From NCBI GenBank assembly GCA_021817305.1, contig JAKAVL010000022.1:3365-41074 (forward strand): a DNA stretch of 37,710 bases, given 5' to 3'. This document shows, piece by piece, positions 3,340 to 32,668 of the stretch. Below the pieces are notes generated by a model. The model searched no databases. It was given only the letters and a program-made list of their open reading frames with translations, and was not told the DNA's origin. Within the stretch, counting starts at the first letter, position 1, and every line of letters begins with the position of its first letter. This stretch comes from Candidatus Micrarchaeota archaeon (GTDB lineage: Archaea; Micrarchaeota; Micrarchaeia; Micrarchaeales; CABMGC01). Made by a program: the position numbers and the translations under genes.

Positions 3340-3403
3340 ACATTAACCTATCCAAGAGTAATATAATAATATTCTCTGCGAACGTTACTGCAAAGCAATT
3401 CCC

Positions 3404-16002: not shown

Positions 16003-17571
16003 ATGTCATGTATAAAAACAGAACCGCTCCGGGCATGTATTTATACTTATTCTTGGCTAATTACTAACAGTGTTTCCTTGTCAAAGAGAAGGACATTGTA
16101 TTTGGTAGGCATAGATTCGGCTCCCCTCCAGATAACGGCAGAACTGTCAAGGAAGAACGGTATGAAGGGCTTCGAAAAGATAATCAAAAATGGCACGTAT
16201 GCGGCCCTCGAGTCAACGCTTCCGCCGATAACGGCAGCGGCGTGGCCGACGATCTACACGGGCCTAAGTCCTGCAGCGCACGGAGTGATGAACTTCTTCT
16301 CACTTGACAAGGAGTACAACAAGCAGCTCACGTTCTACGATACGCAAAAGCACCCGCCGTTCTGGGACGTGCTCGCCAAGCACGGAAAGCGCAGCCTGGT
16401 CATAACTCCCGCCATGGTCGTCGAGCCTTCAAGGAGCGAAAACGTAGACATGATAACGGGCTTCCCGCTCAAGCCGAAGTTCAGCTCAAGAAGCATCGAG
16501 GAAGCGGCGGGCAAGTTCCAGTTCGCAGGAGAGCCTGAGATAGAGCAGGGCCTCAAGGAGGGAAGGATAAGCTTCGAGGATGCAACCCGCAGCTATGTGG
16601 AGAGCATACGCAAGCGCGCAGAAGTAAGCGCATACTTGTTGGAAAGGAAGCAATACGATCTTGTGCTCGTGTGCTTCACCGAAACGGACCGGATACAGCA
16701 TTATGCCCTAAGCCTGAAGAACTGGGAAGAACTCATCTCGCCTTTGTATGCGGAGATATCTAAGTTCATCGAGCGCATAACAAGCAACGCGGAGAAAAGC
16801 GGCGAGGACTTCGCCATAATGATAGTGTCAGACCACGGCGCACAGCCGATAAGGAAGAAGATACTGCTCAACAGCTGGCTAATAAAGAACGGCTACGCCT
16901 CACTCGGCTCGATAATAACCAAGAACGGCCTCAAGGTAGACACCTCGCAGTCCAGGCGCCTTGCCTCTGCAGAGGGGCTTCGCGAGGAGAGGTACTACGA
17001 GCAGCTGCGCATTTCATCGAAGTCGCCGGTCACCCGCTTTATATGTGCAAGCGAGGTCGAGACGAGCTACGAGGACTCGTTCTACAAGAGATCATTCGAC
17101 ATGAAGAACACGAAGGCGTTCGCATCGCTCTCTAACAATCCCGTGAGCAGCATATGGGCAAACGACGGCAGGTTCACCGAGCCCGGAATAAGCGATGGCT
17201 CAAAGAAAAGGACCGTAGACGAGATAAGCAAGAAGCTCAAAGAGCTCAGGGACGGAGACGTGAAAGTCATATCACGAATATCCATGGGCAAGGCGTACTA
17301 CGGCGATACGAGCCTCTTCATAGCCCCGGACCTGATCGTAGAGGCGAGCGACGGCTACACCATTGATGTGTTCAACCACTCGGAGGAGAGCGTGTTTGCT
17401 GAGCCAGAGCCTGCGCGCAGCGGGGACCACACGCGCGAGGGCGTCATGGGCTTCTATTCCAATTCGTCTTCCCTCGACTCGGAGAACCTCAGCGTGCTCG
17501 ACGTCTCGCCAATGGTACTAAGCTATCTGGGAATCAAGGGCCACGTCAGCAAGCTGAAACCAGGCGCATAG
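16003..17571 (+). CDS. Alkaline-phosphatase superfamily enzyme, nucleotide pyrophosphatase/phosphodiesterase (NPP)-like; start uncertain
   Basis: LVGIDSAP, TLPPITAAAWPTIYTGLSPAAHGV (Thr nucleophile region), IMIVSDHG. ATG 16003 leaves only 20 nt to the divergent nth start, so an in-frame TTG at 16078 is a plausible true start. Confidence 0.75.
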   Translation: MSCIKTEPLRACIYTYSWLITNSVSLSKRRTLYLVGIDSAPLQITAELSRKNGMKGFEKIIKNGTYAALESTLPPITAAAWPTIYTGLSPAAHGVMNFFSLDKEYNKQLTFYDTQKHPPFWDVLAKHGKRSLVITPAMVVEPSRSENVDMITGFPLKPKFSSRSIEEAAGKFQFAGEPEIEQGLKEGRISFEDATRSYVESIRKRAEVSAYLLERKQYDLVLVCFTETDRIQHYALSLKNWEELISPLYAEISKFIERITSNAEKSGEDFAIMIVSDHGAQPIRKKILLNSWLIKNGYASLGSIITKNGLKVDTSQSRRLASAEGLREERYYEQLRISSKSPVTRFICASEVETSYEDSFYKRSFDMKNTKAFASLSNNPVSSIWANDGRFTEPGISDGSKKRTVDEISKKLKELRDGDVKVISRISMGKAYYGDTSLFIAPDLIVEASDGYTIDVFNHSEESVFAEPEPARSGDHTREGVMGFYSNSSSLDSENLSVLDVSPMVLSYLGIKGHVSKLKPGA

Positions 17572-17572
17572 C

Positions 17573-18931
17573 ATGAAAAAGCTCTTCGGCACCAATGGCA
17601 TAAGGGGCATAACCAACAAGGAACTGGCTCCGGAGCTTGCGCTGGGTATGGGCAGGGCGATAGGTACCTATTTCAAGGAAGGCAGCAGAATTCTCATCGG
17701 CAGGGACATACGCGCCGGAGGCGACATGCTCGCTAGGGCACTCACAAGCGGGCTTCTCAGCGCAGGAATAGACGTTTGCTACGCAGGCATCCTGCCGACC
17801 CCAGTGCTCCAGTACAGCATAAGAAGCAACAAATACGACGGCGGCGTGATGGTGACGGCGAGTCACAATCCCCCGGAGTTCAACGGCATAAAGGTCATAG
17901 ATGCTGACGGCGTGGAGACAAACAGCGCGAACGAGGAAAAGATAGAGGAATACTACCTATCGGGAAACTTCAGGGCGGTTGACTGGAAGAGACTGGACCG
18001 CGACGTCATGGAGGTTCCACGACTGACAGGCCCGTACGTGGACAGCGTATTGAAGCATGTCGACGCAGAGAAGATTCGCGAGAGGAGATTCAAGGTGCTG
18101 ATCGACGGCGGAAACAGTGTCGGCTCGATAACCAGCAAGGCGATAGCAAGCTCCCTCGGGTGCGAAATCCACGAAATCAACACAGACCTCGATCCGCTGT
18201 TCCCGGGAAGGACGCCAGAGCCGACGCCAGCGAGCCTGGCAAAGACCGCTGAATCCGCAAAGAGGCTTGGCGTAGACATCACCGTTGCGCATGACGGAGA
18301 TGCGGATCGCGCAATATTTATAGACTCCGAGGGCAGGGTGCAGCTGGGCGACAAGAGCGGCGCCCTTCTTGCGTACTGGGCAGTCATTCGGAACGGGAAA
18401 TCAGACAAAAAGGTGGTAACTCCCTTCTCAAGCTCTGACCTTGTAGAGGAGTTCCTCAAGTTGCACGGCATAAGCACCGAGCGCACGAGGATAGGCAGCA
18501 TATTCGTCTCCAGAACGCTGATGAGCGGCGGAGGAATCGCAGGCTTCGAGGACAACGGAGGCTTCATATATCCAAGGCACCAGTGCGTGCGCGACGGCGC
18601 AATGGCATTCGCGTTCATGCTGGATTTTCTGGCCTCGCAGGGAAAGAGCTCAGCCGAATTGTTTGACATGCTTCCCAGATACTTCGTCGAGAAGATAAAG
18701 ATCCCGATGGACGGGATCAACACGGAAAATATTTTTGGCGCCATAACCGCAAAATACGGAGATACCTGCAGGGTCATCGACACGGACCACGACGGATTGA
18801 AGATGGCCGGAAATGGCTTCTGGTTCATAGTCAGAAAGAGCGGCACAGAGCCGGTGCTCAGGATAAGCGTCGAGGCCAAGGAAAAGGCCGTCCTTGATGA
18901 CACACTGGAAAATCTTAAGAAACTTGTATGA
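17573..18931 (+). CDS. Alpha-D-phosphohexomutase (phosphoglucosamine mutase / phosphomannomutase family)
   Basis: 452 aa. Active-site loop TASHNPPEFNGIKV and metal loop AHDGDADR. Confidence 0.88.
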   Translation: MKKLFGTNGIRGITNKELAPELALGMGRAIGTYFKEGSRILIGRDIRAGGDMLARALTSGLLSAGIDVCYAGILPTPVLQYSIRSNKYDGGVMVTASHNPPEFNGIKVIDADGVETNSANEEKIEEYYLSGNFRAVDWKRLDRDVMEVPRLTGPYVDSVLKHVDAEKIRERRFKVLIDGGNSVGSITSKAIASSLGCEIHEINTDLDPLFPGRTPEPTPASLAKTAESAKRLGVDITVAHDGDADRAIFIDSEGRVQLGDKSGALLAYWAVIRNGKSDKKVVTPFSSSDLVEEFLKLHGISTERTRIGSIFVSRTLMSGGGIAGFEDNGGFIYPRHQCVRDGAMAFAFMLDFLASQGKSSAELFDMLPRYFVEKIKIPMDGINTENIFGAITAKYGDTCRVIDTDHDGLKMAGNGFWFIVRKSGTEPVLRISVEAKEKAVLDDTLENLKKLV

Positions 18932-19890
18932 GCATATGTAGTGATACAATGTCAGGGAAAAGAGTACTGGTTGCAGGAGGAGCAGGATTCATAGGCAGCG
19001 CTATAGTGGACAGACTTGTCGAATCAGGTTACAGCGTGCGCGTCGTAGACGACCTATCTTCGGGAAAGAAGGAGAACCTGAGCGCGCACATGGGCAAGGG
19101 CTACTTTGAGTTTGTGGAAGGCAGCATAATTGACAAGAGCGTCGCAGAGAAGTCGGTAAATGGCGTAGACGCGGTGATAAGCATGGTCGGCATAGGGGAT
19201 CTTGCAAAGTCGGTCGCCAACCCGATGCACTACCACGAGGTAAACCTTACGGGCAACCTGAACCTGCTTATAGCCGCGCAGGGCAAGCAGATAAAGAAAT
19301 TCATATTTGCATCCTCCGGTGCTGTATACACGTCGAAGGCCATAGGCGTCATATCCGAGACTGCCGAATATGGGCCCGTGTCACCGTACGCGGCAACAAA
19401 GGTCTGCTTCGAGATATACGCGAGGACCTTCAATGAAGTCTATGGCATGGAGTGCGTGTGCTTCAGGTTCTTCAACGTGTACGGGCCCCGGCGCGAGAAC
19501 AGCACTTACGGCGGAGCTGTAACAAATTTCATGCTGAACGTCATGCACGGGAAGGAGATAACGATGTTCGGCACCGGAGAAGACAAGCGCGACTACGTCT
19601 ACGTCAAGGACGTCGCAAGGGCAGTCGTGATGGGCCTGAAGAAAGGAGTATCCGGGGAGTTCAACGTAGGCACCGGCACCGGCACCTCGACAAATGACCT
19701 TCTTGCAATGATAGAGGCGACGATTGGCAAGAACGCGAGTGTGAGCAGGGCACCGGCCCGCAAGGGCGACAGCCCGAGCAGGATAGGGAACATTTCCAAG
19801 ATAGGAAGCACTCTTGGGTATAAACCGGAATACTCCCTGGAGAAGGGCCTCGCCGAGTTGAAGGAATACCTAAAGGACAAGGGCGCATGA
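18928..19890 (+). CDS. NAD-dependent nucleotide-sugar epimerase/dehydratase (GalE-like SDR)
   Basis: VLVAGGAGFIGS Rossmann motif and catalytic SPYAATK (YxxxK). ATGA overlap with the upstream mutase gene. Confidence 0.85.
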   Translation: MSICSDTMSGKRVLVAGGAGFIGSAIVDRLVESGYSVRVVDDLSSGKKENLSAHMGKGYFEFVEGSIIDKSVAEKSVNGVDAVISMVGIGDLAKSVANPMHYHEVNLTGNLNLLIAAQGKQIKKFIFASSGAVYTSKAIGVISETAEYGPVSPYAATKVCFEIYARTFNEVYGMECVCFRFFNVYGPRRENSTYGGAVTNFMLNVMHGKEITMFGTGEDKRDYVYVKDVARAVVMGLKKGVSGEFNVGTGTGTSTNDLLAMIEATIGKNASVSRAPARKGDSPSRIGNISKIGSTLGYKPEYSLEKGLAELKEYLKDKGA

Positions 19891-19920
19891 AGCAAACGCA
19901 TCAGAAATCCTACCTGAGTG

Positions 19921-21006
19921 CTATGCGCCGTCTATTATCCTTTCATATCCATTAACAACTTTCCCGAAGCTGAACCGCTTGATGAACTTTCTGGTGTTTG
20001 CGGCAAGCCTCTTCTGCAGCTTGGTGTCTGAATATAACCTGTAAAACTGACTGGAGAAGTCGCTCATGTCCCCATACCTGTATATAAGGCCATTGTACTT
20101 CTCCCTCACAATCGTTGCCTCTGGTTTTTTGCTTATCACGGTGTTTATGTTGTCGTTTATGAGCAGGGGCAGTCCGCAGGCCATCGCCTCAAGCAGCGAC
20201 CTGCTGAGCCCCTCCCATTCAGAAGTGGAGACCAGGAACGCGGCATTGTTGTATCTTTTCACAAGCTCCTTCCCAGTGAAGAAGCCCACAAAGCGTATGC
20301 TCTTCTGCAGCCCGAGCGAACTGACCAATGCCCTGTAGCTCTTCTCGTCCACGCCAGTGCCTATTATCCTAAGGAGCTCCACGCCCCTCAGCTCCGGGTG
20401 CTCCTCTATTACCCTCGCTATGCCCCTTATCATGAAGCCTATCCTCTTCTGTCGTTCGTCCAGCCTCGCAGACGCAAGCGCGCCATGGTATGTTTTCTTC
20501 GATTTAAGGATCCTGAACTCTTCGTGGGGCGCTATGAGTATGTACCGTACGTCTGTTCCGGCGCCGAAGAAGCGTTTCGCGTATTCGTACTGCTCAAGGC
20601 CTATCGCGACATAGTAGTCAAGCCACCTTCCCATGAGGGACACAAGGCCCCTCCGTATCACCATCTTAGGAAGAAGTCGCCTGAGGCCCCCGTCCCTGAA
20701 GTTCAGGAGGACGTTGCCGCGATCGACGTAAAGGAACTTTGCCCTGCCGCCACCATGCCTTTTTCTGTACCCATCGGCTATCAAGACGTCGCGTATCGAG
20801 TTCATCCACACGATGTCGTAATCTCTGGACATGAGCTGCTTCAGGGTGACCGTCTCCGCATGCTTGTCAATGCCAGAGAAGTTGCCATAGAGGTCTATGC
20901 TGTAATCCTTCCTGAGCCTGAGCTTGCTGTAAAGCTTGTAGGTGTCCTTGGCCGCACCACCAATCACCTTGAAGGAGCCTGACTCCATAATTAATACCCG
21001 TTTCAT
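19921..21006 (-). CDS. Glycosyltransferase, GT4-like (GT-B fold)
   Basis: 361 aa. C-terminal STSEWEGLSRSLLEAMACGLPLL (EX7E motif). Confidence 0.82.
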   Translation of the reverse strand: MKRVLIMESGSFKVIGGAAKDTYKLYSKLRLRKDYSIDLYGNFSGIDKHAETVTLKQLMSRDYDIVWMNSIRDVLIADGYRKRHGGGRAKFLYVDRGNVLLNFRDGGLRRLLPKMVIRRGLVSLMGRWLDYYVAIGLEQYEYAKRFFGAGTDVRYILIAPHEEFRILKSKKTYHGALASARLDERQKRIGFMIRGIARVIEEHPELRGVELLRIIGTGVDEKSYRALVSSLGLQKSIRFVGFFTGKELVKRYNNAAFLVSTSEWEGLSRSLLEAMACGLPLLINDNINTVISKKPEATIVREKYNGLIYRYGDMSDFSSQFYRLYSDTKLQKRLAANTRKFIKRFSFGKVVNGYERIIDGA

Positions 21007-21074
21007 ACAACCCGTCTTAGTAACACATAAATCTTAATGGCACAAAGGATATAAAGCTTGAATTCAAAGAATAA

Positions 21075-21864
21075 ATGAGGTGCTTATATAATCGTATCAA
21101 GGGCGATAATAACCGCCGCAGGAGAAGGAAGGAGGATGCAGAGGGTCACCTCCGTAGTCCCAAAGGCGCTCCTCCCGCTTTTCAAGGGCGAGAATGGAGG
21201 AAAAATAGTCACGCCTATTGCTGATCTGATAATGGAATCTCTTGAATCGGCAGGCGTGTCGAGCTTCTGTTTTGTCGTTGGCAAACATCGCAATCTCCTC
21301 ATGGATTATATGTTTGAGCGAGGCGTAACATTTGTCTTCCAGAACCAGCCAAAGGGCTTCGGCGATGCCGTTTTGCGCGGCGAGGACTTCGCCAGCAGGG
21401 GGCCTATGTCCGGCAAGAGCCCTGTCTTCGTGCATGCTGATGACGGTGTGCTCACCGGCGGATACAAGGAGGCGGTAGAGCTTTTTTCGAAGATGAATGC
21501 AGACGGGGTGCTTCTGCTCAGGAAGACAAACAACCCAAAAAGATACGGAATAGCAGAGCCGGGTAAGGCGTTCACCCATCTGGGCCATAAGGCATTCGAG
21601 ATTGTCGGCGTGCAAGAGAAGCCCGAGAATCCCAGGTCAGACATGCTCATATCCGCAGTCTACTTGCTGTCTCACAAGATATTCAAGGCCATAAAGGACG
21701 CATCACCAGAACACGGCGAGATACAGCTGACCACAGGAATTCAGAACCTAATAAAGGAAGGCCATAAAGTATACGGCATACTGCTCGAGAAGGAGCAGTG
21801 GCTCAATGTGGGCGATACGGAGAGCTACCACAAGGCCCTTGAGTATTCCTACAAGAACCTCTAA
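21075..21864 (+). CDS. Sugar-1-phosphate nucleotidyltransferase (UDP-glucose pyrophosphorylase-like). The N-terminus is disrupted or non-canonical; the intact ORF starts only at 21136.
   Basis: In-frame codons upstream of ATG 21136 encode ...RAIITAAGEGRR-M-QRVTSVVPKALLPL, the GxGxR...PKxLLP signature, yet no ATG/GTG/TTG lies before the upstream stop. ATG 21075 sits behind TATA ggatataaag and comes into frame if one G of GGG 21101-21103 is removed. Confidence 0.75.
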
Positions 21865-23037
21865 CTATCTCGCGTTTTCTGTTTTTCTCCAGTTGGTGTA
21901 CGGAAGAATCCTGTTGTGGAACCTGCTCATGTGCTCCTTGTACGGCACAAGGTCCTGTATAAGCTGGCCTGTGAGATCAGCCATCTTGAGCTTCGGCTTG
22001 AAGCCGAGGCCCGGCAGCACCTTTATCTCGGGATTGTAGTGGTGCCTGTCCGCCTCTACTCTCGGGTTCTCATGCTTTCCTATCGTAACCTCAATGCCTA
22101 GCCTCTTCGCTGCTTTCTGCACCGTCTCCGCTATCTGGTTTATGCTCAGCAGCTCAACGAACTGGTTAGCTACCCTGTACTCGCCATGCTCCGGAGGGTT
22201 CTCTATGAGCAGGCTCAGCGCCTGCACACTGTCCTCAAGCGAGAGATATCCGCGCACCTGCTGGCCGCTCCCGTAAACTGTCAGCGGAATGCCAAGCACC
22301 GACTCGACGCAGAACCTGTTGACAACGGTTCCCCACACCTCGTCGAAGTCGAAGCGAGTGTGCAGCTTCTCGTCTGTTATCTCCTTGGTCCTCGTGCCGT
22401 AAACCGGTCCCTGCATTATATCTGTAAACGTAAGCTTCAGCACCTTGTTCGCGAAGAGTATGTTATTAGTATCATGAACCTTGGACCAGTGGTACCATGA
22501 GCCTGCGAACTTCGGAGTAGTTATCCTGTCCTTTCTGCCTTTTATCTCAACGTCAACGTACGCTGACTCGGGTATGTCGAAATTCGGTGTGCCGTACTCT
22601 CCCATGGTTCCCATCTTCACGACATGCGCCGACGGATTTGTCTCCATCATGGAATAAATGAGATTGATGGTCCCCGAGATGTTGTTTGTCAGGGTGTAAG
22701 TCGCGTGCTTTGCGTTTATCATCGAATACGGGGCGGATCTTGTCTCTGCGAAGTGCACCACCGCATCCGGCTTCTCCTCCTTCATGACCTTGTGGAGGAA
22801 CTCGTAGTCCGTTATGTCCCCTTCATGGAATTTCATGTTGAATCCATGGATGTCCTTTGCAGCCTTTATCCTGTCTTTCATTGCCGGGATAGGTATCGCC
22901 GAATCAGAGCCCACCTCCTTGACGTTCTTCCTTGTCACAAAGTTGTCGACTCCTATTACATCATGGCCCCTTGCCAAAAGCCTGAGCGACAAAGGCCAAC
23001 CAAGATAACCGTCAGCTCCTAGTACCACTACTTTCAT
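21865..23037 (-). CDS. agl3: UDP-sulfoquinovose synthase (SQD1/Agl3 family SDR)
   Basis: 390 aa. VLGADGYLGW, HFAETRSAPYSM, GTMGEYGTPNFDI, WYHWSKVHD, NRFCVESVLGIPLTVYGSGQQVRGYL, NPRVEADRHHYN. As recalled, these are near-identical in pattern to plant SQD1 and Sulfolobus Agl3. Confidence 0.85.
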   Translation of the reverse strand: MKVVVLGADGYLGWPLSLRLLARGHDVIGVDNFVTRKNVKEVGSDSAIPIPAMKDRIKAAKDIHGFNMKFHEGDITDYEFLHKVMKEEKPDAVVHFAETRSAPYSMINAKHATYTLTNNISGTINLIYSMMETNPSAHVVKMGTMGEYGTPNFDIPESAYVDVEIKGRKDRITTPKFAGSWYHWSKVHDTNNILFANKVLKLTFTDIMQGPVYGTRTKEITDEKLHTRFDFDEVWGTVVNRFCVESVLGIPLTVYGSGQQVRGYLSLEDSVQALSLLIENPPEHGEYRVANQFVELLSINQIAETVQKAAKRLGIEVTIGKHENPRVEADRHHYNPEIKVLPGLGFKPKLKMADLTGQLIQDLVPYKEHMSRFHNRILPYTNWRKTENAR

Positions 23038-23070: not shown

Positions 23071-24297
23071 TCATACTTTTGTAATCGTGCAGATGCCTGC
23101 AAAGACGTCATCGCTGTACAGCACAAATCTTCCCAGTTCCTTTGTTGCGCGGTACTCCTCAACAGGCAGTTTCCTGTCGAATTCGACTCTGGCGTCAATA
23201 GCGTTGAGCACTTCCGGAGTTTTGCGCTGCATCTTTTCTCCCGTAGTGGTGTCGATGCCGTCTATCACATCAACCGACCTGCATCCCATGTCTATGCCAT
23301 TGAATTTTACGTGCAGCTTTTTTCCTATGACTCCGGTGACAAATATCCTTGCAGTCACCGAGTCAACGACCCGCGGCCTGTCATCGATTCCGGATATCAC
23401 GGCCCCCCTCAGCCCGAATCCCGCCTTGCTATCCAGGGTTATCGCGGCATTTTCTCCAATGCCGGCAGAATTCACCCTCCTGCCCTTGACTATTATCTCT
23501 TTCACCTTGGCATTGTGCCCATTAGGCAAGATATCCACCTTATCCCCTTCCGTCAGCCTGCCGCTTATGACTTTGCCTGCGATGATGTTGCCCTCGGAGT
23601 CTATGGCGCCCTGGACCACTATCCTGAGCGCACTCCCGCTGCCTGCGCCGCTAGCATCGGCAAAGATGCCGTATATGGAATCTATCAAAGTGCTTCCGCC
23701 ATACCACGCCATCTTTCCGCTTTTCTTGACAAGGTTCTCGCCGTTGTACGCAGATATGGGCACAAAGCGCACGTCTCTTTCCTCAAAACCTATCCTGCTT
23801 ATGAATTTCCCAAGGCTGTCCCTTATGCTGTTGAAACTTCCTTCTTCATAGCCCATGCTGTCCATCTTGTTAACCGCAACCACAAGCCTGTCTATGCCGA
23901 GCATGCGCGCTATGAACAGGTGCCTCTTCGTCTGGTCCCGTATCCCCTCGTCGCCCTTCGCGGACACTAGAAGCACGGCTACCTCGCCGTAGCTTGCGCC
24001 GCTTATCATGTTCTTTATGAGCTCCTCGTGCCCCGGCACGTCGATGAATGAGAAGGCCAAATCCTTGTACTTTATCTGCGCGCGCGTAGTGTCATAGGTC
24101 ATCCCCTGCTCGCGCTCCTCGGAAAAGCTGTCGAGTATGAACGCAGGCTCGAAAGGCTTGCGCAGCTTCTCGCTGTACGCCTTTGCCTCGTTTATCCTCA
24201 CCTGCGTGGCAGAACCTGTCTGCATGAGCATGCTGCCTATTAGCGTTGACTTGCCGTGGTCCTTGTGGCCCAGAAGTGCGATTGTCTTTACTATCAT
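23071..24297 (-). CDS. cysN: EF-1alpha-like GTPase, sulfate adenylyltransferase large-subunit (CysN)-like
   Basis: G1 GHKDHGKST, G3 DVPGHEEL, G4 NKMD, followed by beta-barrel domains. It lies immediately downstream of cysD. No APS-kinase domain. Confidence 0.72.
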   Translation of the reverse strand: MIVKTIALLGHKDHGKSTLIGSMLMQTGSATQVRINEAKAYSEKLRKPFEPAFILDSFSEEREQGMTYDTTRAQIKYKDLAFSFIDVPGHEELIKNMISGASYGEVAVLLVSAKGDEGIRDQTKRHLFIARMLGIDRLVVAVNKMDSMGYEEGSFNSIRDSLGKFISRIGFEERDVRFVPISAYNGENLVKKSGKMAWYGGSTLIDSIYGIFADASGAGSGSALRIVVQGAIDSEGNIIAGKVISGRLTEGDKVDILPNGHNAKVKEIIVKGRRVNSAGIGENAAITLDSKAGFGLRGAVISGIDDRPRVVDSVTARIFVTGVIGKKLHVKFNGIDMGCRSVDVIDGIDTTTGEKMQRKTPEVLNAIDARVEFDRKLPVEEYRATKELGRFVLYSDDVFAGICTITKV

Positions 24298-24301
24298 CTC
24301 C

Positions 24302-25090
24302 TCACATGTATCCGAGCGACCTTAAGCGCTGCATGACGTATTCCCGCTCCTTGTCCATGCTTCTGCCGGATCTCTCCTCGCCGGTAGTGGTCTCAAGCTC
24401 ATTTATTATGTCATCCACTGTCTTTGCCTCCGACCTCAATGGCACGGTGCAATGCGTGCATCCCAAACTTCTGTATCTATGTCCATTTCTTGAGAAATAA
24501 AGCGGATTGACCGGTATGTTTTCCTGCTTGACGTAGCTCCATATGTCGATCTCGTTCCAGTCCAGAAGCGGGTGCACCCTGATATGGCCTTTCTTGTCCA
24601 TCTTCGAGGAATAATCATCCCATAGCTCCGCGGGCTGATCTTTGTAATTCCACCTGAACTCCTCGTCGCGGGGGCTCATATAACGCTCCTTCGCGCGAAT
24701 TCCATGCTCGTCCCTCCTTATCGAAACTATGAGAGCATCGAATCCGTGCTCCTCCATCACCTTCTTGAGGGTTTCCGGCTTATTCTTGCCGCAGCATGCG
24801 GATCCGACGAGATCGGGCTTTATCTCGCTCTGCGCAACTATCAGGTCAAGGTTCCATTCCTTTGCAAGGTCCTGCCTGAACTTATATGTCTCTGGGAAGT
24901 CAATGCTATTATCAATGTGAATAACGGGGAAGGGCACCTTTCCCAAAAACGCCTTCCTCGCCAGCGCAAGCATGGTGGTAGAATCCTTTCCCATGCTCCA
25001 TAGCGCAGCTATGTTCTTGAACTTCATCTTCGCTTCGCGTATCACGTAAATGCTTCTCTCTTCCAGAACGTTCAAATCCTGCTTAATCAT
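24302..25090 (-). CDS. cysD: Sulfate adenylyltransferase small subunit (CysD), a variant with a CC...CxxC cysteine set
   Basis: PP-loop SMGKDS, RRDEHGIRAKERYMSPRD...QPAELWDDY, RVHPLLDWNEIDIW, RYRSLGCTHCT, C-terminal LRSLGYM. Confidence 0.85.
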   Translation of the reverse strand: MIKQDLNVLEERSIYVIREAKMKFKNIAALWSMGKDSTTMLALARKAFLGKVPFPVIHIDNSIDFPETYKFRQDLAKEWNLDLIVAQSEIKPDLVGSACCGKNKPETLKKVMEEHGFDALIVSIRRDEHGIRAKERYMSPRDEEFRWNYKDQPAELWDDYSSKMDKKGHIRVHPLLDWNEIDIWSYVKQENIPVNPLYFSRNGHRYRSLGCTHCTVPLRSEAKTVDDIINELETTTGEERSGRSMDKEREYVMQRLRSLGYM

Positions 25091-25389
25091 TCGCTCACCT
25101 TGTTTGAAACCTGAAGCCCCATCAAGTATATCGTGGCGCCGCGCACCTTCTTGCCCTCCTTCTTCACTATTGGGACTTTCGTTATGGGCTTGTATTCGGC
25201 ATCGTAAATCTCTGCATACGATTTCGTGAGGTCCTGCATCTTGCTGAGCTTGCCTTCATTCGCGAACACGACCTTGTAATACGCGGCATTGCTGCCCACC
25301 AAAGCCCCGGCGAACTCCCCCCATTTCTCATCGCTCTGCTCCCTCCAGAGCTCCTCCGCTGCCTTTTCAAGCTTAGAGTTGCCTGCCAT
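25087..25389 (-). CDS. Hypothetical 100-aa protein, translationally coupled to cysD
   Basis: ORF whose stop overlaps the cysD ATG (ATGA). No Cys, no TM segment, and no family recognised. Confidence 0.55.
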   Translation of the reverse strand: MAGNSKLEKAAEELWREQSDEKWGEFAGALVGSNAAYYKVVFANEGKLSKMQDLTKSYAEIYDAEYKPITKVPIVKKEGKKVRGATIYLMGLQVSNKVSE

Positions 25390-25405: not shown

Positions 25406-25633
25406 CTATCCCGTGTATCCAAGGGCCTCAAGCTTCTCTATGACAGCGCCCTTCGTCTTCTTGTCCTTGTTGTTCATGTCTATCATGGTCTCGCGGAGCA
25501 CAAACGTCACCCAGTCCGAAACCGACGAGAAACCCGTGTCCTCTATGCTCCTGCTTATCCTGTCGAACAGAGGCTGCGGTATGGTTATTGTTGTGTACTT
25601 CCTCACCGCCTTCCCAACCCTTTTCGGTTTCAT
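25406..25633 (-). CDS. Ribbon-helix-helix (CopG/Arc/MetJ-like) transcriptional regulator
   Basis: 75 aa. YTTITIPQPLFDRISRSIEDTGFSSVSDWVTFVLRE fits the beta-strand plus two-helix RHH pattern. First gene of the operon. Confidence 0.7.
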   Translation of the reverse strand: MKPKRVGKAVRKYTTITIPQPLFDRISRSIEDTGFSSVSDWVTFVLRETMIDMNNKDKKTKGAVIEKLEALGYTG

Positions 25634-28936: not shown

Positions 28937-29560
28937 CTCTCGAAGAAGGGCAAGCGGCACTCACATTGCTGTTAAGTTGGCAACAAGAATTTTTGCGCTT
29001 ACATCTAAGTCGACCAAGTGATTACTACCTCCCCCGCATTGCCATTGGAACCAGAGCCACCTCCCTCTCCTATGGTTCCTGACGGATTTCCCGCAGTGTC
29101 ACCGCTGCCTCCTGTATTTGTAATGCTGCTTACTGTTATGGAGTTCGCCCAGCTTGAGCCCCCTCCTCCTCCGCCTGGCGTAGCCCCTCCAGGATCGCCT
29201 CCACCTCCTCCAAAATATCCACAACCTCCCCCTCCACCCGGAACTCCGGTGTCAACGGAAGCCCCGCTTCCTCCGTTATAGCCGCTCCCGCTGCCGCCAG
29301 CTCCTCCGCCACTACCCCCGGCCGTTTGTGTTCCTCCATAACCCCCATAGGTGCCTGTGCCAGCCTGCCCTGCAGTTCCCCCACCAGCTCCGCCGCCTCC
29401 CGCAGCATAATAACTTCCCCCGCCTCCTCCTGCGGCTACGATGATAACACTTGGATTGGACAATGAAGCAGTGCTACTTATGGCAGAACAACCGCCACCA
29501 CCTCCGCCCCCGTTACTTACCGTACTGCCTCCTCCGTTTAAGCCTCCAGTGTAACCAGTG

Positions 29561-29570
29561 CCCCTCCCCC
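29561..29570 (-). repeat. Homopolymer tract G5-A-G4 (minus strand) at the frame-switch point of the glycine-rich gene
   Basis: The plus strand reads cccctccccc. The frame changes between ...YVYVGGG and GTGYTGGLNGGG... Confidence 0.8.
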
Positions 29571-30310
29571 TACATATACATAAAGCGGTGTACCTGGACT
29601 TGTACTATAAATGCCTTCTATGTATCCGCCACCACCTCCATAAGCATGTCCCCCGCTTCCTCCCCCTCCCCATAACTGGAATGTTGCCTGGTTACAGCCT
29701 GCAGGCACAGTCACCGAATATGGGCCTCCTGCAATGCCAAAAGTGTTTGCCGGAGCAGTGCAACTTGGGCCGCTGACTACTGTATTCGACGTCACCGCCT
29801 TCGCTGTGAGCGTCGCGATCTGGCTCACCTGCCCTGTTTGGCCGTTCTTAGTGTACTGTATCCACAGTGTGCCTGTGAAGGCCGCGCCTATGGCGTTCGA
29901 TGCAAGAGGGCACTGGAATACCATGCTTAGCGTCTCGCCCGACACAACATTTGCTGTTATGCTGTTGAATGATGATGGTGTGCCGCTGCTGCCGGAGACG
30001 CAGGCGGTGCCTGTTATGCCGATGCCCGCGCCGAGGCCCTCGCCGAACGTTACGAGGACGTTGCCCGTTGTGTTCATCATGGGTCCTTTGCACTCGAATC
30101 CGAACTGCGCGAGGCACGATGACGTGAACGCGCCCGCGCCGCCGCCGAAGGCGCCTGTTATGTACAGCGCAAGGACCACCACGACGATGACGAGTATGCT
30201 CCACCCATAGGTCGTGAGGTACTCCATCGCGCCCTGCGCTTTCGATGAAACCTTTCCTAAAGGCTTCGCTGACTTAGGCCTGTAACTGTGGCTAACTGCC
30301 GCTGCTTTCT

Positions 30311-31747: not shown

Positions 31748-32668
31748 TTGCTCGCGGAAATCATAGACCTTGCGCTCGTTTTCGTCCTCGTCGCACTTGT
31801 ATCGGGAAACAACCTGTCCGCATGCGCAGGACCCGCCATAACCGGAAGGGTAGTAAAGAGGAGAACCGGGGTTGTCCTCACAATAATAGGGTACGCTGCC
31901 GGCTTCCTGCTTCAGGGTCAGATATTGCGCAGTGGGGTTAGCAGGCTCATACCGTTCGGCAATTCTCTGATTCCTATAATATTCATAATCTCGATAGCGG
32001 TGTTCATAATCGCGCACAGGAAGCGCGTGCCAGAGTCGCTCTCCGTCACGTTCATCTCCGCTCTAATTGGTGTTGGGCTCGCGTACGGCACCCTCGACAC
32101 GGGGTTCGTGGCAGAGATACTGCTCTTCTGGATAATCGCCGGCATTCTATCCCTCGTGATGGCGTCAGTCGCGCTGCGCGCAGTGCAGAAGGCCCTGTAC
32201 AGGGACAAGGTCTGGAATGGAGTGAGGACAGTGCGCATCCTTCTCCTAGTGTTGTCGTTCTTCACCTCATTTACCCTAGGCGCGAACACCATAGGGGTTG
32301 TCGCATCTGTGCTCCAGCCGACGTGGTACGCATATGTCGTTATACTGCTTGCAATAGTCCTCGGCAGCTTCCTGTTGAGTTCTGGGGAGCTGCGCAGGAT
32401 AGGCAACGAGATAATACCGATCCGCTATGCTAATGCGCTCGTGTCGCAGCTTGTCGCTGCCGCGTTCGTCGAGTTCGCCACCCTCCTCAGCATACCCATA
32501 TCGAACACGCAGATGCTGACAAGCACCATTTACGGCACGGGCCTCGGCTACAAGGAAAAGCTTCTCTCAAAGAAGCCGGCCGTGCAGATAGCATCCATCT
32601 GGATATTCACCGCTGTTTTCAGCGTTTCTGTTGCTTACGCCGCGGCGCGCATCATTGTTCTTCTCTGA
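31748..32668 (+). CDS. PiT (PHO4)-family anion permease, divergent
   Basis: 306-aa polytopic membrane protein. It has two internally repeated signature-like segments, SGNNLSACAGPAITGR and LGANTIGVVAS, in the positions of the PiT GANDVAN-type motifs. TTG start. Confidence 0.65.
   Translation: MLAEIIDLALVFVLVALVSGNNLSACAGPAITGRVVKRRTGVVLTIIGYAAGFLLQGQILRSGVSRLIPFGNSLIPIIFIISIAVFIIAHRKRVPESLSVTFISALIGVGLAYGTLDTGFVAEILLFWIIAGILSLVMASVALRAVQKALYRDKVWNGVRTVRILLLVLSFFTSFTLGANTIGVVASVLQPTWYAYVVILLAIVLGSFLLSSGELRRIGNEIIPIRYANALVSQLVAAAFVEFATLLSIPISNTQMLTSTIYGTGLGYKEKLLSKKPAVQIASIWIFTAVFSVSVAYAAARIIVLL

Follow-up and report, generated by a model that had tools for sequence, protein, structure and literature searches.

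We analyzed a stretch of 37,710 nucleotides (referred to here as the window) from a Candidatus Micrarchaeota archaeon (GenBank assembly GCA_021817305.1, contig JAKAVL010000022.1, forward-strand positions 3,365 to 41,074), which contains a gene for a CysD-type PP-loop adenylyltransferase. On the minus strand of the window, the gene order is a gene for a ribbon-helix-helix (RHH)-like protein, orf100, cysD, a cysN-like GTPase gene, and a gene for UDP-sulfoquinovose synthase (SQD1) (Table 1). An original prediction, made from the sequence, had proposed that the cysteines of this CysD could ligate an Fe-S cluster like that of adenosine 5′-phosphosulfate (APS) reductases and that the enzyme might be redox active or regulated.

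The cysD product is a member of the CysD family. It matches PF01507 (E = 2e-38) and the NCBIfam model NF003587, "sulfate adenylyltransferase subunit CysD" (301.7 bits; cutoff of 195), and its best solved relative by sequence is Pseudomonas syringae CysD (1zun_A, E = 8.7e-56). With the classical CysD proteins of Escherichia coli (b2752) and P. syringae (1ZUN), to which it is 43 to 45% identical, it has in common the fold of 3′-phosphoadenosine 5′-phosphosulfate (PAPS) reductases, an intact PP-loop, Lys104 and the ERxGR motif, the C-terminal tail ending in GY(M/F), and an adjacent EF-1alpha-like GTPase. The PP-loop residues S32, K35, D36, and S37 are all invariant in the homolog alignment, and Lys104 is invariant in three alignments, one of which includes both E. 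coli CysD and APS reductase. The classical proteins differ, however, in that about 35 residues, absent from the window protein, are inserted ahead of the RFRTLGC motif. The classical cysD gene of E. coli is linked to cysC and cysH, whereas no APS kinase gene is found within 8 kb of the window cysD. Judged by its sequence, the window protein belongs to a divergent, short branch of CysD and not the classical proteobacterial type.

The window CysD has four cysteines in total, which form a tandem pair, Cys99-Cys100 (LVGSACCGKNKPETLKK, reverse-strand read), and a CxxC motif, Cys211 to Cys214 (RYRSLGCTHCTVP, reverse-strand read). Both sets of codons were found on the reverse strand where the original prediction had placed them. 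The prediction had also stated that assimilatory APS reductases bind their cluster through a CC segment and a CxxC segment, and both segments are present in the enzymes of Pseudomonas aeruginosa (2goy; ECCGIRKIEPL and SIGCEPCT) and Mycobacterium tuberculosis (7lhr; ECCRLRKVVPL and SIGCAPCT). In classical CysD, K-H or V/L-T/H replaces the tandem pair and C..L replaces CxxC. E. coli K-12 CysD, fetched as b2752 and translated, reads HGSAKHTDIMKTEGL at the CC position and RFRTLGCWPLTG at the CxxC position, in agreement with the statement in the prediction that it lacks three of the four cysteines. The equivalent of Cys211 is the only one left in both E. coli and P. syringae CysD.

We compared the two protein families at the level of individual residues. 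A profile of 90 CysD sequences was aligned by hhalign to the P. aeruginosa APS reductase sequence, which agrees with 2goy_A over residues 1 to 267 with zero mismatches; the alignment has a probability of 97.9% and an E value of 4.9e-13. In this alignment, Cys99 and Cys100 fall on Cys139 and Cys140, Cys211 and Cys214 fall on Cys228 and Cys231, and Lys104 falls on Lys144 of the reductase. Cys139, Cys140, Cys228, and Cys231 are reported to be the [4Fe-4S] ligands in the 2GOY crystal structure (Chartron et al. 2006). A MAFFT alignment places the arginines of the ERxGR motif, Arg240 and Arg243, on Arg242 and Arg245 of the same enzyme. The fold, the four cysteine positions (within CCxx(R/N)K and (I/L)GCxxCT), and the lysine and ERxGR residues around the phosphosulfate are shared at an overall identity of only 20 to 25%. 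Lys104 and ERxGR also occur in cluster-free CysD and do not discriminate for APS reductase. The Cys-Cys tandem has been described as a marker of the APS reductase [4Fe-4S] cluster (Carroll et al. 2005, PMC1175818).

A structure of the window CysD was modeled with AlphaFold2 (AF2), with a predicted local distance difference test score (pLDDT) of 82.6 and a predicted template modeling score of 0.83. The model places the CC pair at the N terminus of helix 97-115. In a Foldseek search, its first match was the classical CysD (1zun_A, E = 1.5e-20) and its second match was the APS reductase (2goy_A, E = 7e-13).

How common the four-cysteine variant is among archaeal CysD homologs had been left open in the original prediction, which also named absence of the cysteines from close orthologs as a result that would count against it. 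CC and GCxxC were found in 120 of the 120 closest homologs listed (75 to 100% identity, Micrarchaeota), and all four cysteines were likewise kept in 120 of the 120 best profile-search matches (55 to 64% identity), among which the named organisms are Bathyarchaeota, Aenigmarchaeota, and "Methanospirareceae" (ANME-1). When genomic loci were collected from a single genome for each GTDB species, a relative was encoded in at least 583 loci. Among the best 80 of these, which were analyzed further, 77 encode all four cysteines; of the other three, two are truncated, and L074 has T, E, Y, and V at the four positions. The organisms with a four-cysteine homolog or locus include, among the archaea, Micrarchaeota, Thermoplasmata, Bathyarchaeia, Hydrothermarchaeota, and ANME-1 and, among the bacteria, Dehalococcoidia, Planctomycetota (Phycisphaerae, Pirellulales, and Sedimentisphaerales), and Liptonbacterium of the candidate phyla radiation. 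The variant is therefore not rare among archaeal homologs but is the norm in the CysD branch to which the window protein belongs. This branch is large, mostly uncultured, and mostly anaerobic.

A wider sample was taken from the best 150 family representatives at 50% clustering. The CC pair was present in 77 of 130 and CxxC in 63 of 104 representatives. All four positions could be resolved in 85 representatives. Four cysteines occur in 47 of these, a single one in 18, and none in 12, which leaves only 8 with two or three. Fisher's test for the association of CC with the Cys214 position gave P = 9e-13, uncorrected for phylogeny. By this near all-or-none pattern, the four cysteines are kept or lost as a unit, as would be the case if they ligated a single cofactor. 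An alignment of 20 sequences (39 to 54% identity to the query) has 11 invariant columns, four of which are the cysteines; as these sequences were selected for the four cysteines, the invariance of the cysteines is circular, and the informative part is the scarcity of other invariant columns. Taken with the hhalign result and the conservation in both sets of 120 homologs, this places the four-cysteine set well beyond chance. The suggested binding of an Fe-S cluster by this CysD is supported by the homology of the ligands, their wide conservation, their near all-or-none occurrence, and the retention of Lys104, Arg240, and Arg243, and we consider a [4Fe-4S] site in the window CysD to be likely.

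A rough neighbor-joining distance tree was rooted on two four-cysteine APS reductases. The classical long CysD proteins form one cluster-free clade, with the patterns xxCL and xxDx, and a second clade is mostly four-cysteine, with scattered losses nested within it. Two proteins, P0198 and P0235, resemble the classical type in their KKREGYF tails and have a short insertion, yet they retain all four cysteines. This tree, the relic Cys211 in classical CysD, and the four cysteines of P0198 and P0235 suggest that CysD and assimilatory APS reductase descend from an ancestor with the [4Fe-4S] site, which was later lost repeatedly.

Three features separate assimilatory APS reductases from the window protein. 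The reductases have a degenerate PP-loop (SGAEDV), a catalytic cysteine in a C-terminal ECGLH motif, and no GTPase partner, and the window CysD shows the reverse on all three. Its PP-loop is intact, it is followed by a GTPase gene, and in its sequence and alignment no counterpart of the ECGLH cysteine and no fifth cysteine was found, the protein ending in ...QRLRSLGYM. APS reductase models scored well below their cutoffs (TIGR02055, 57.3 versus 235.3 bits; NF002537, 75.7 versus 154 bits). None of the hallmarks known to define reductase chemistry was found.

On balance, we think it probable that the window gene encodes the CysD subunit of a GTP-driven ATP sulfurylase of the CysD/CysN type with a retained ancestral [4Fe-4S] cluster, which would serve as a nonredox organizer of the sulfate/phosphosulfate pocket. 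In the proposed mechanism, the PP-loop (S32 to S37) would bind ATP, and sulfate would attack the alpha-phosphate to give APS and pyrophosphate. GTP hydrolysis by the adjacent CysN-like GTPase would drive this unfavorable APS-forming step. Cys99, Cys100, Cys211, and Cys214 would ligate the cluster beside Lys104 and Arg240/Arg243. There, the cluster would organize and charge the pocket for the sulfate or phosphosulfate group with no electron transfer, and the enzyme would make APS but not reduce it. A similar role has been proposed for APS reductase, whose cluster, according to Carroll et al. 2005 (PMC1175818), may be in contact with the APS sulfate.

TtuA/Ncs6-type thiolation enzymes (5B4F and 5MKP) are PP-loop ATPases that also use a [4Fe-4S] cluster for nonredox chemistry, and they gave weak fold matches (TMq of about 0.5). 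Their cluster ligands, however, lie at other positions, their substrates are tRNAs, and there is no sequence relationship at the cysteine motifs. In these enzymes, three cysteines ligate the cluster, and one iron is free to bind sulfur. We found no description of an Fe-S CysD in the literature, the coverage of which was incomplete, so that a prior description is possible. In a 2024 review, CysD still appears as an ATP pyrophosphatase and nothing more.

Several observations weigh against the reading of the protein as an ATP sulfurylase subunit with an ancestral cluster. The window CysD is below the cutoffs of the classical CysD models (TIGR02039, 217.2 versus 396.6 bits; NF009214, 222.7 versus 413 bits), and the CysN-like GTPase is below the NCBIfam cutoffs of both EF-1alpha and CysN (CysN, 230.9 versus 336.1 bits). 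With both partners under the classical equivalog cutoffs, the assignment of ATP sulfurylase activity can be no more than putative. The neighbor-joining tree is based on distances and carries no support values. AF2 confidence is lowest around the CC pair, with a pLDDT of 57 for residues 91 to 100; low values in the loop before the pair are as expected for a metal site modeled without its ligand. P0121, which is 60% identical to the window protein and its sister in the tree, has T, E, Y, and C and has thus lost three of the four cysteines. Together with the complete replacement in L074, this implies that the cluster would be dispensable in some backgrounds.

The same sporadic losses in close relatives suggest a stabilizing and not a catalytic role, which would suit a structural zinc site or regulatory disulfides. 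The computations used here do not discriminate between metals, and in other PP-loop enzymes, sites of four cysteines commonly hold zinc. Nevertheless, we regard zinc or disulfides as unlikely here, since each residue of the site has its homolog in the crystallographically defined [4Fe-4S] site of 2GOY, tandem Cys-Cys is a recognized marker of such a cluster (PMC1175818), and the lineages that carry it, judged by organism names, are largely anaerobes.

This bias toward anaerobic lineages would also fit a cluster whose main function is that of a switch responding to oxygen or redox state, its oxidation or loss inactivating sulfate activation, which corresponds to the regulated adenylyltransferase of the original prediction. 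The CysD proteins of aerobic or facultative bacteria such as E. coli and P. syringae are cluster free, and a putative dedicated RHH regulator is encoded upstream of the module. The conserved contact set (Lys104 and ERxGR), however, points toward substrate binding. Such a switch, which we consider improbable as the main function, is compatible with a pocket-organizing cluster and does not exclude it.

The position of SQD1 directly after cysN, in the same orientation, raises a more far-reaching option. SQD1 also follows cysN in relatives whose CysD is 90 to 96% identical to that of the window, the SQD1 proteins being 85 to 88% identical. Archaeal SQD1/Agl3 uses sulfite (PMC4388408). A search of the window for genes of CysH, APS kinase, or sulfite formation found none, in line with the original description of an operon without a reductase, and tblastn with E. 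coli CysC and P. aeruginosa APS reductase against the window and 85 related loci gave no match except cysD itself. No APS kinase gene within 8 kb and no second PAPS-reductase-family gene near cysDN was found in this set. As the cluster ligands and the APS-binding lysine and arginines are those of a reductase, CysD and CysN, possibly with the cotranslated orf100 product, could be imagined as a self-contained machine that forms APS and converts it to sulfite by reductive release at the cluster, without the thiol mechanism, to supply SQD1.

We find this very unlikely. The thiol of the ECGLH motif, which carries the sulfo group in all known APS and PAPS reductases, is missing, there is no spare cysteine in CysD, and the orf100 product has no cysteine at all. 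Electron delivery by the cluster is not known for APS reductase (PMC1175818), and sulfite could instead come from the environment, a host, or a gene elsewhere in the genome. SQD1 was not found within 8 kb of cysD in any of the 80 species-representative loci. An adaptation of the four cysteines to the SQD1 operon was considered and rejected, since 77 four-cysteine loci have no SQD1 and the association is confined to the relatives with 90 to 96% identity. As SQD1 follows cysN only within this small group and was absent from the 80 loci, the four-cysteine site predates the association and is independent of it. The reductase-like, sulfite-producing adenylyltransferase that the original prediction raised is thus disfavored on three counts, namely, the absent ECGLH cysteine, the intact PP-loop, and the occurrence of the four cysteines without SQD1. 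A miscalled APS reductase was also rejected, given the low TIGR02055 and NF002537 scores, the lack of the ECGLH cysteine, and the intact PP-loop.

Table 1. Features of the window around cysD and of related cysDN loci (locus handles precede the coordinates outside the window)
Feature	Position	Strand	Remarks
cysD	24302..25090	-	262-aa CysD-type PP-loop adenylyltransferase, short four-Cys form; PF01507, NF003587, 1zun_A
Cys99-Cys100 codons (tandem CC)	24791..24796	-	TGC TGC; N terminus of predicted helix 97-115
Cys211-Thr-His-Cys214 codons (CxxC, motif RSLGCTHCT)	24449..24460	-	TGC ACG CAT TGC
Lys104 codon	24779..24781	-	position computed from ORF start; equivalent of APS reductase Lys144 by hhalign
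PP-loop, S32-M-G-K-D-S37	24980..24997	-	ATP-binding signature, intact; alignment with E. coli CysD SIGKDS
ERxGR motif, E239-R-S-G-R243	24362..24376	-	invariant E, R, G, and R columns across CysD and APS reductase
CysN-like GTPase	23071..24297	-	408 aa, no APS kinase domain; starts 4 nt after cysD stop; GTP_EFTU
UDP-sulfoquinovose synthase, SQD1/Agl3 type	21865..23037	-	33 nt downstream of cysN; NF041015 equivalog, 630.7 bits, cutoff 575
orf100	25087..25389	-	100 aa, no cysteine; stop overlaps cysD start (ATGA)
RHH-like protein	25406..25633	-	75 aa; weak NikR-type match
Sugar-1-phosphate nucleotidyltransferase (UDP-glucose supply)	21136..21864	+	PF00483; GalU/AglF-type matches
Glycosyltransferase family 4 (GT4)	19921..21006	-	PF00534
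GalE-like epimerase	18928-19890	+	
Phosphoglucomutase	17573-18931	+	
Alkaline-phosphatase-superfamily protein	16003..17571	+	PF01663, E = 9.5e-34
Glycine-rich ORF, smaller	29005-29463	-	GGGGSGG-type runs
Glycine-rich ORF, larger	29538-30227	-	GGGGSGG-type runs; no Pfam match
PHO4/PiT-family transporter	31748-32668	+	
Alkaline-phosphatase-superfamily gene at four-Cys cysDN	L059:8814-9506		
Alkaline-phosphatase-superfamily gene at four-Cys cysDN	L060:10029-10808		
Alkaline-phosphatase-superfamily gene at four-Cys cysDN	L049:10128-11480		
Alkaline-phosphatase-superfamily gene at four-Cys cysDN	L068:6573-7958		
TauE/SafE-family permease	L060:7161-7982		directly upstream of four-Cys cysD
TauE/SafE-family permease	L074:7110-7946		directly upstream of cysD
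TnpB/Cas12f-like gene	L082/L083:7376-8596	-	PF07282; between RHH gene and orf100

We investigated the neighborhood of cysD in the best 80 loci by unbiased clustering of the neighboring open reading frames (ORFs). The most frequent neighbor is CysN (72 loci), followed by the RHH protein (44 loci), which lies upstream of cysD and is sometimes on the opposite strand, and orf100 (42 loci, from Micrarchaeota and Thermoplasmata), which is also upstream of cysD. Two groups of alkaline-phosphatase-superfamily proteins were found in 23 and 19 loci. The window GTPase scores higher against archaeal EF-1alpha (218 bits) than against the CysN of 1zun_B (168 bits) and looks like an intermediate or early-branching member of the EF-1alpha/CysN group. 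The RHH-like protein is probably a dedicated regulator of the module. The orf100 product has a conserved core, FANEGKLxKMQDLTKSY, and does not match any Pfam or NCBIfam family; its 17 word-sharing homologs are all unnamed or hypothetical, and its AF2 model (pLDDT of 77.5) has no significant fold match in the PDB (best E = 0.41). It is translationally coupled to cysD, and its product could act in the module as a third subunit or as a chaperone. In a close relative with a CysD 90% identical to that of the window (L082/L083), a TnpB/Cas12f-like gene lies between the RHH gene and orf100, which is a mobile-element insertion upstream of cysD.

With sensitive seeds, an alkaline-phosphatase-superfamily gene (PF01663/PF00884) was detected beside cysDN in 52 of the 80 loci, in both archaea and bacteria. 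It is usually placed right after cysN, and in Bathyarchaeia a "mini" form of 230 residues lies between cysD and cysN, overlapping the start of cysN. By eye, these proteins have T-x-P-S-H, or the threonine, where true sulfatases have C-x-P-S-R with the formylglycine cysteine. They do not match any characterized NCBIfam equivalog, and for the window protein of this superfamily, no solved relative by sequence and no NCBIfam equivalog was found. In Halobacterium salinarum, Agl30 and Agl31, which are sulfatase-like proteins of the alkaline phosphatase superfamily, were shown genetically in a 2025 paper to be N-glycan sulfotransferases; the paper names no sulfate donor (PMC11980604). Their likeness is to the neighbors of cysDN and not to CysD itself, and it holds at the superfamily level (PF01663/PF00884), so any link of Agl30/Agl31 to CysDN is by analogy. 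The presence of such a gene in 52 of 80 loci, the lack of a nearby APS kinase gene, and the superfamily shared with Agl30/Agl31 provide a lead that four-cysteine CysDN might feed APS directly to alkaline-phosphatase-superfamily sulfotransferases for a PAPS-independent sulfation of glycans.

In nine loci (L060, L074, and seven others), from Dehalococcoidia and some other bacteria, a TauE/SafE-family permease gene is located directly upstream of cysD, which is of the four-cysteine type except in L074. The permease may transport sulfate or sulfite for the module. In the window, there is a gene of the PHO4/PiT family, which in relatives has a PhoU_div gene as its partner (L082). Sulfate can be a substrate of PiT-family proteins, as for Bacillus subtilis CysP, and by analogy the window transporter could be a sulfate importer. 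Two adjacent ORFs in the window encode very glycine-rich proteins, which may be secreted or exposed at the surface.

The region from 17573 to 23037 of the window holds a complete gene set for a C-sulfonated sugar, comprising a phosphoglucomutase, a UDP-glucose pyrophosphorylase-like transferase, SQD1/Agl3, and a GalE-like epimerase, together with a GT4 glycosyltransferase. With the epimerase, the product might be the 4-epimer of UDP-sulfoquinovose; 6-C-sulfofucose has been reported in Thermoplasma N-glycans. A related locus (L039, CysD identity of 91%) has the gene order threonyl-tRNA synthetase, RHH, orf100, cysD, cysN, GT4, and alkaline-phosphatase-superfamily gene. Given this order, the window looks like an L039-type cluster into which the SQD1/nucleotidyltransferase and epimerase/phosphoglucomutase genes were inserted.

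The requirement of assimilatory APS reductases for a [4Fe-4S] cluster without obvious electron transfer is a long-standing question. The four-cysteine CysD is widespread and conserved, and, as far as its sequence can tell, it bears on this question. If it does bind a cluster, the same site in an enzyme that carries out a nonredox reaction on the same phosphosulfate group would argue for a substrate-binding or electrostatic role of the cluster, and Fe-S CysD would be a second and simpler system in which the role of the APS reductase cluster can be tested. The Fe-S form appears to be ancestral to CysD and the sulfonucleotide reductases, and the cluster-free CysD of E. coli would then look derived. 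Loss of the cluster in E. coli-type CysD was perhaps an adaptation to oxygen or iron limitation, paralleling the proposed shift from APS to PAPS reductases.

The annotation "CysD" is read as assimilatory sulfate reduction in thousands of metagenome-assembled genomes (from Bathyarchaeia, ANME-1, Dehalococcoidia, DPANN, and others), and the CysDN of ANME-1 has been discussed as assimilatory (PMC6286981). Where cysD is of the four-cysteine type and lies near glycan and sulfatase-like genes, with no kinase or reductase gene nearby, it may instead indicate sulfation or sulfonation of surface glycans and not assimilation.

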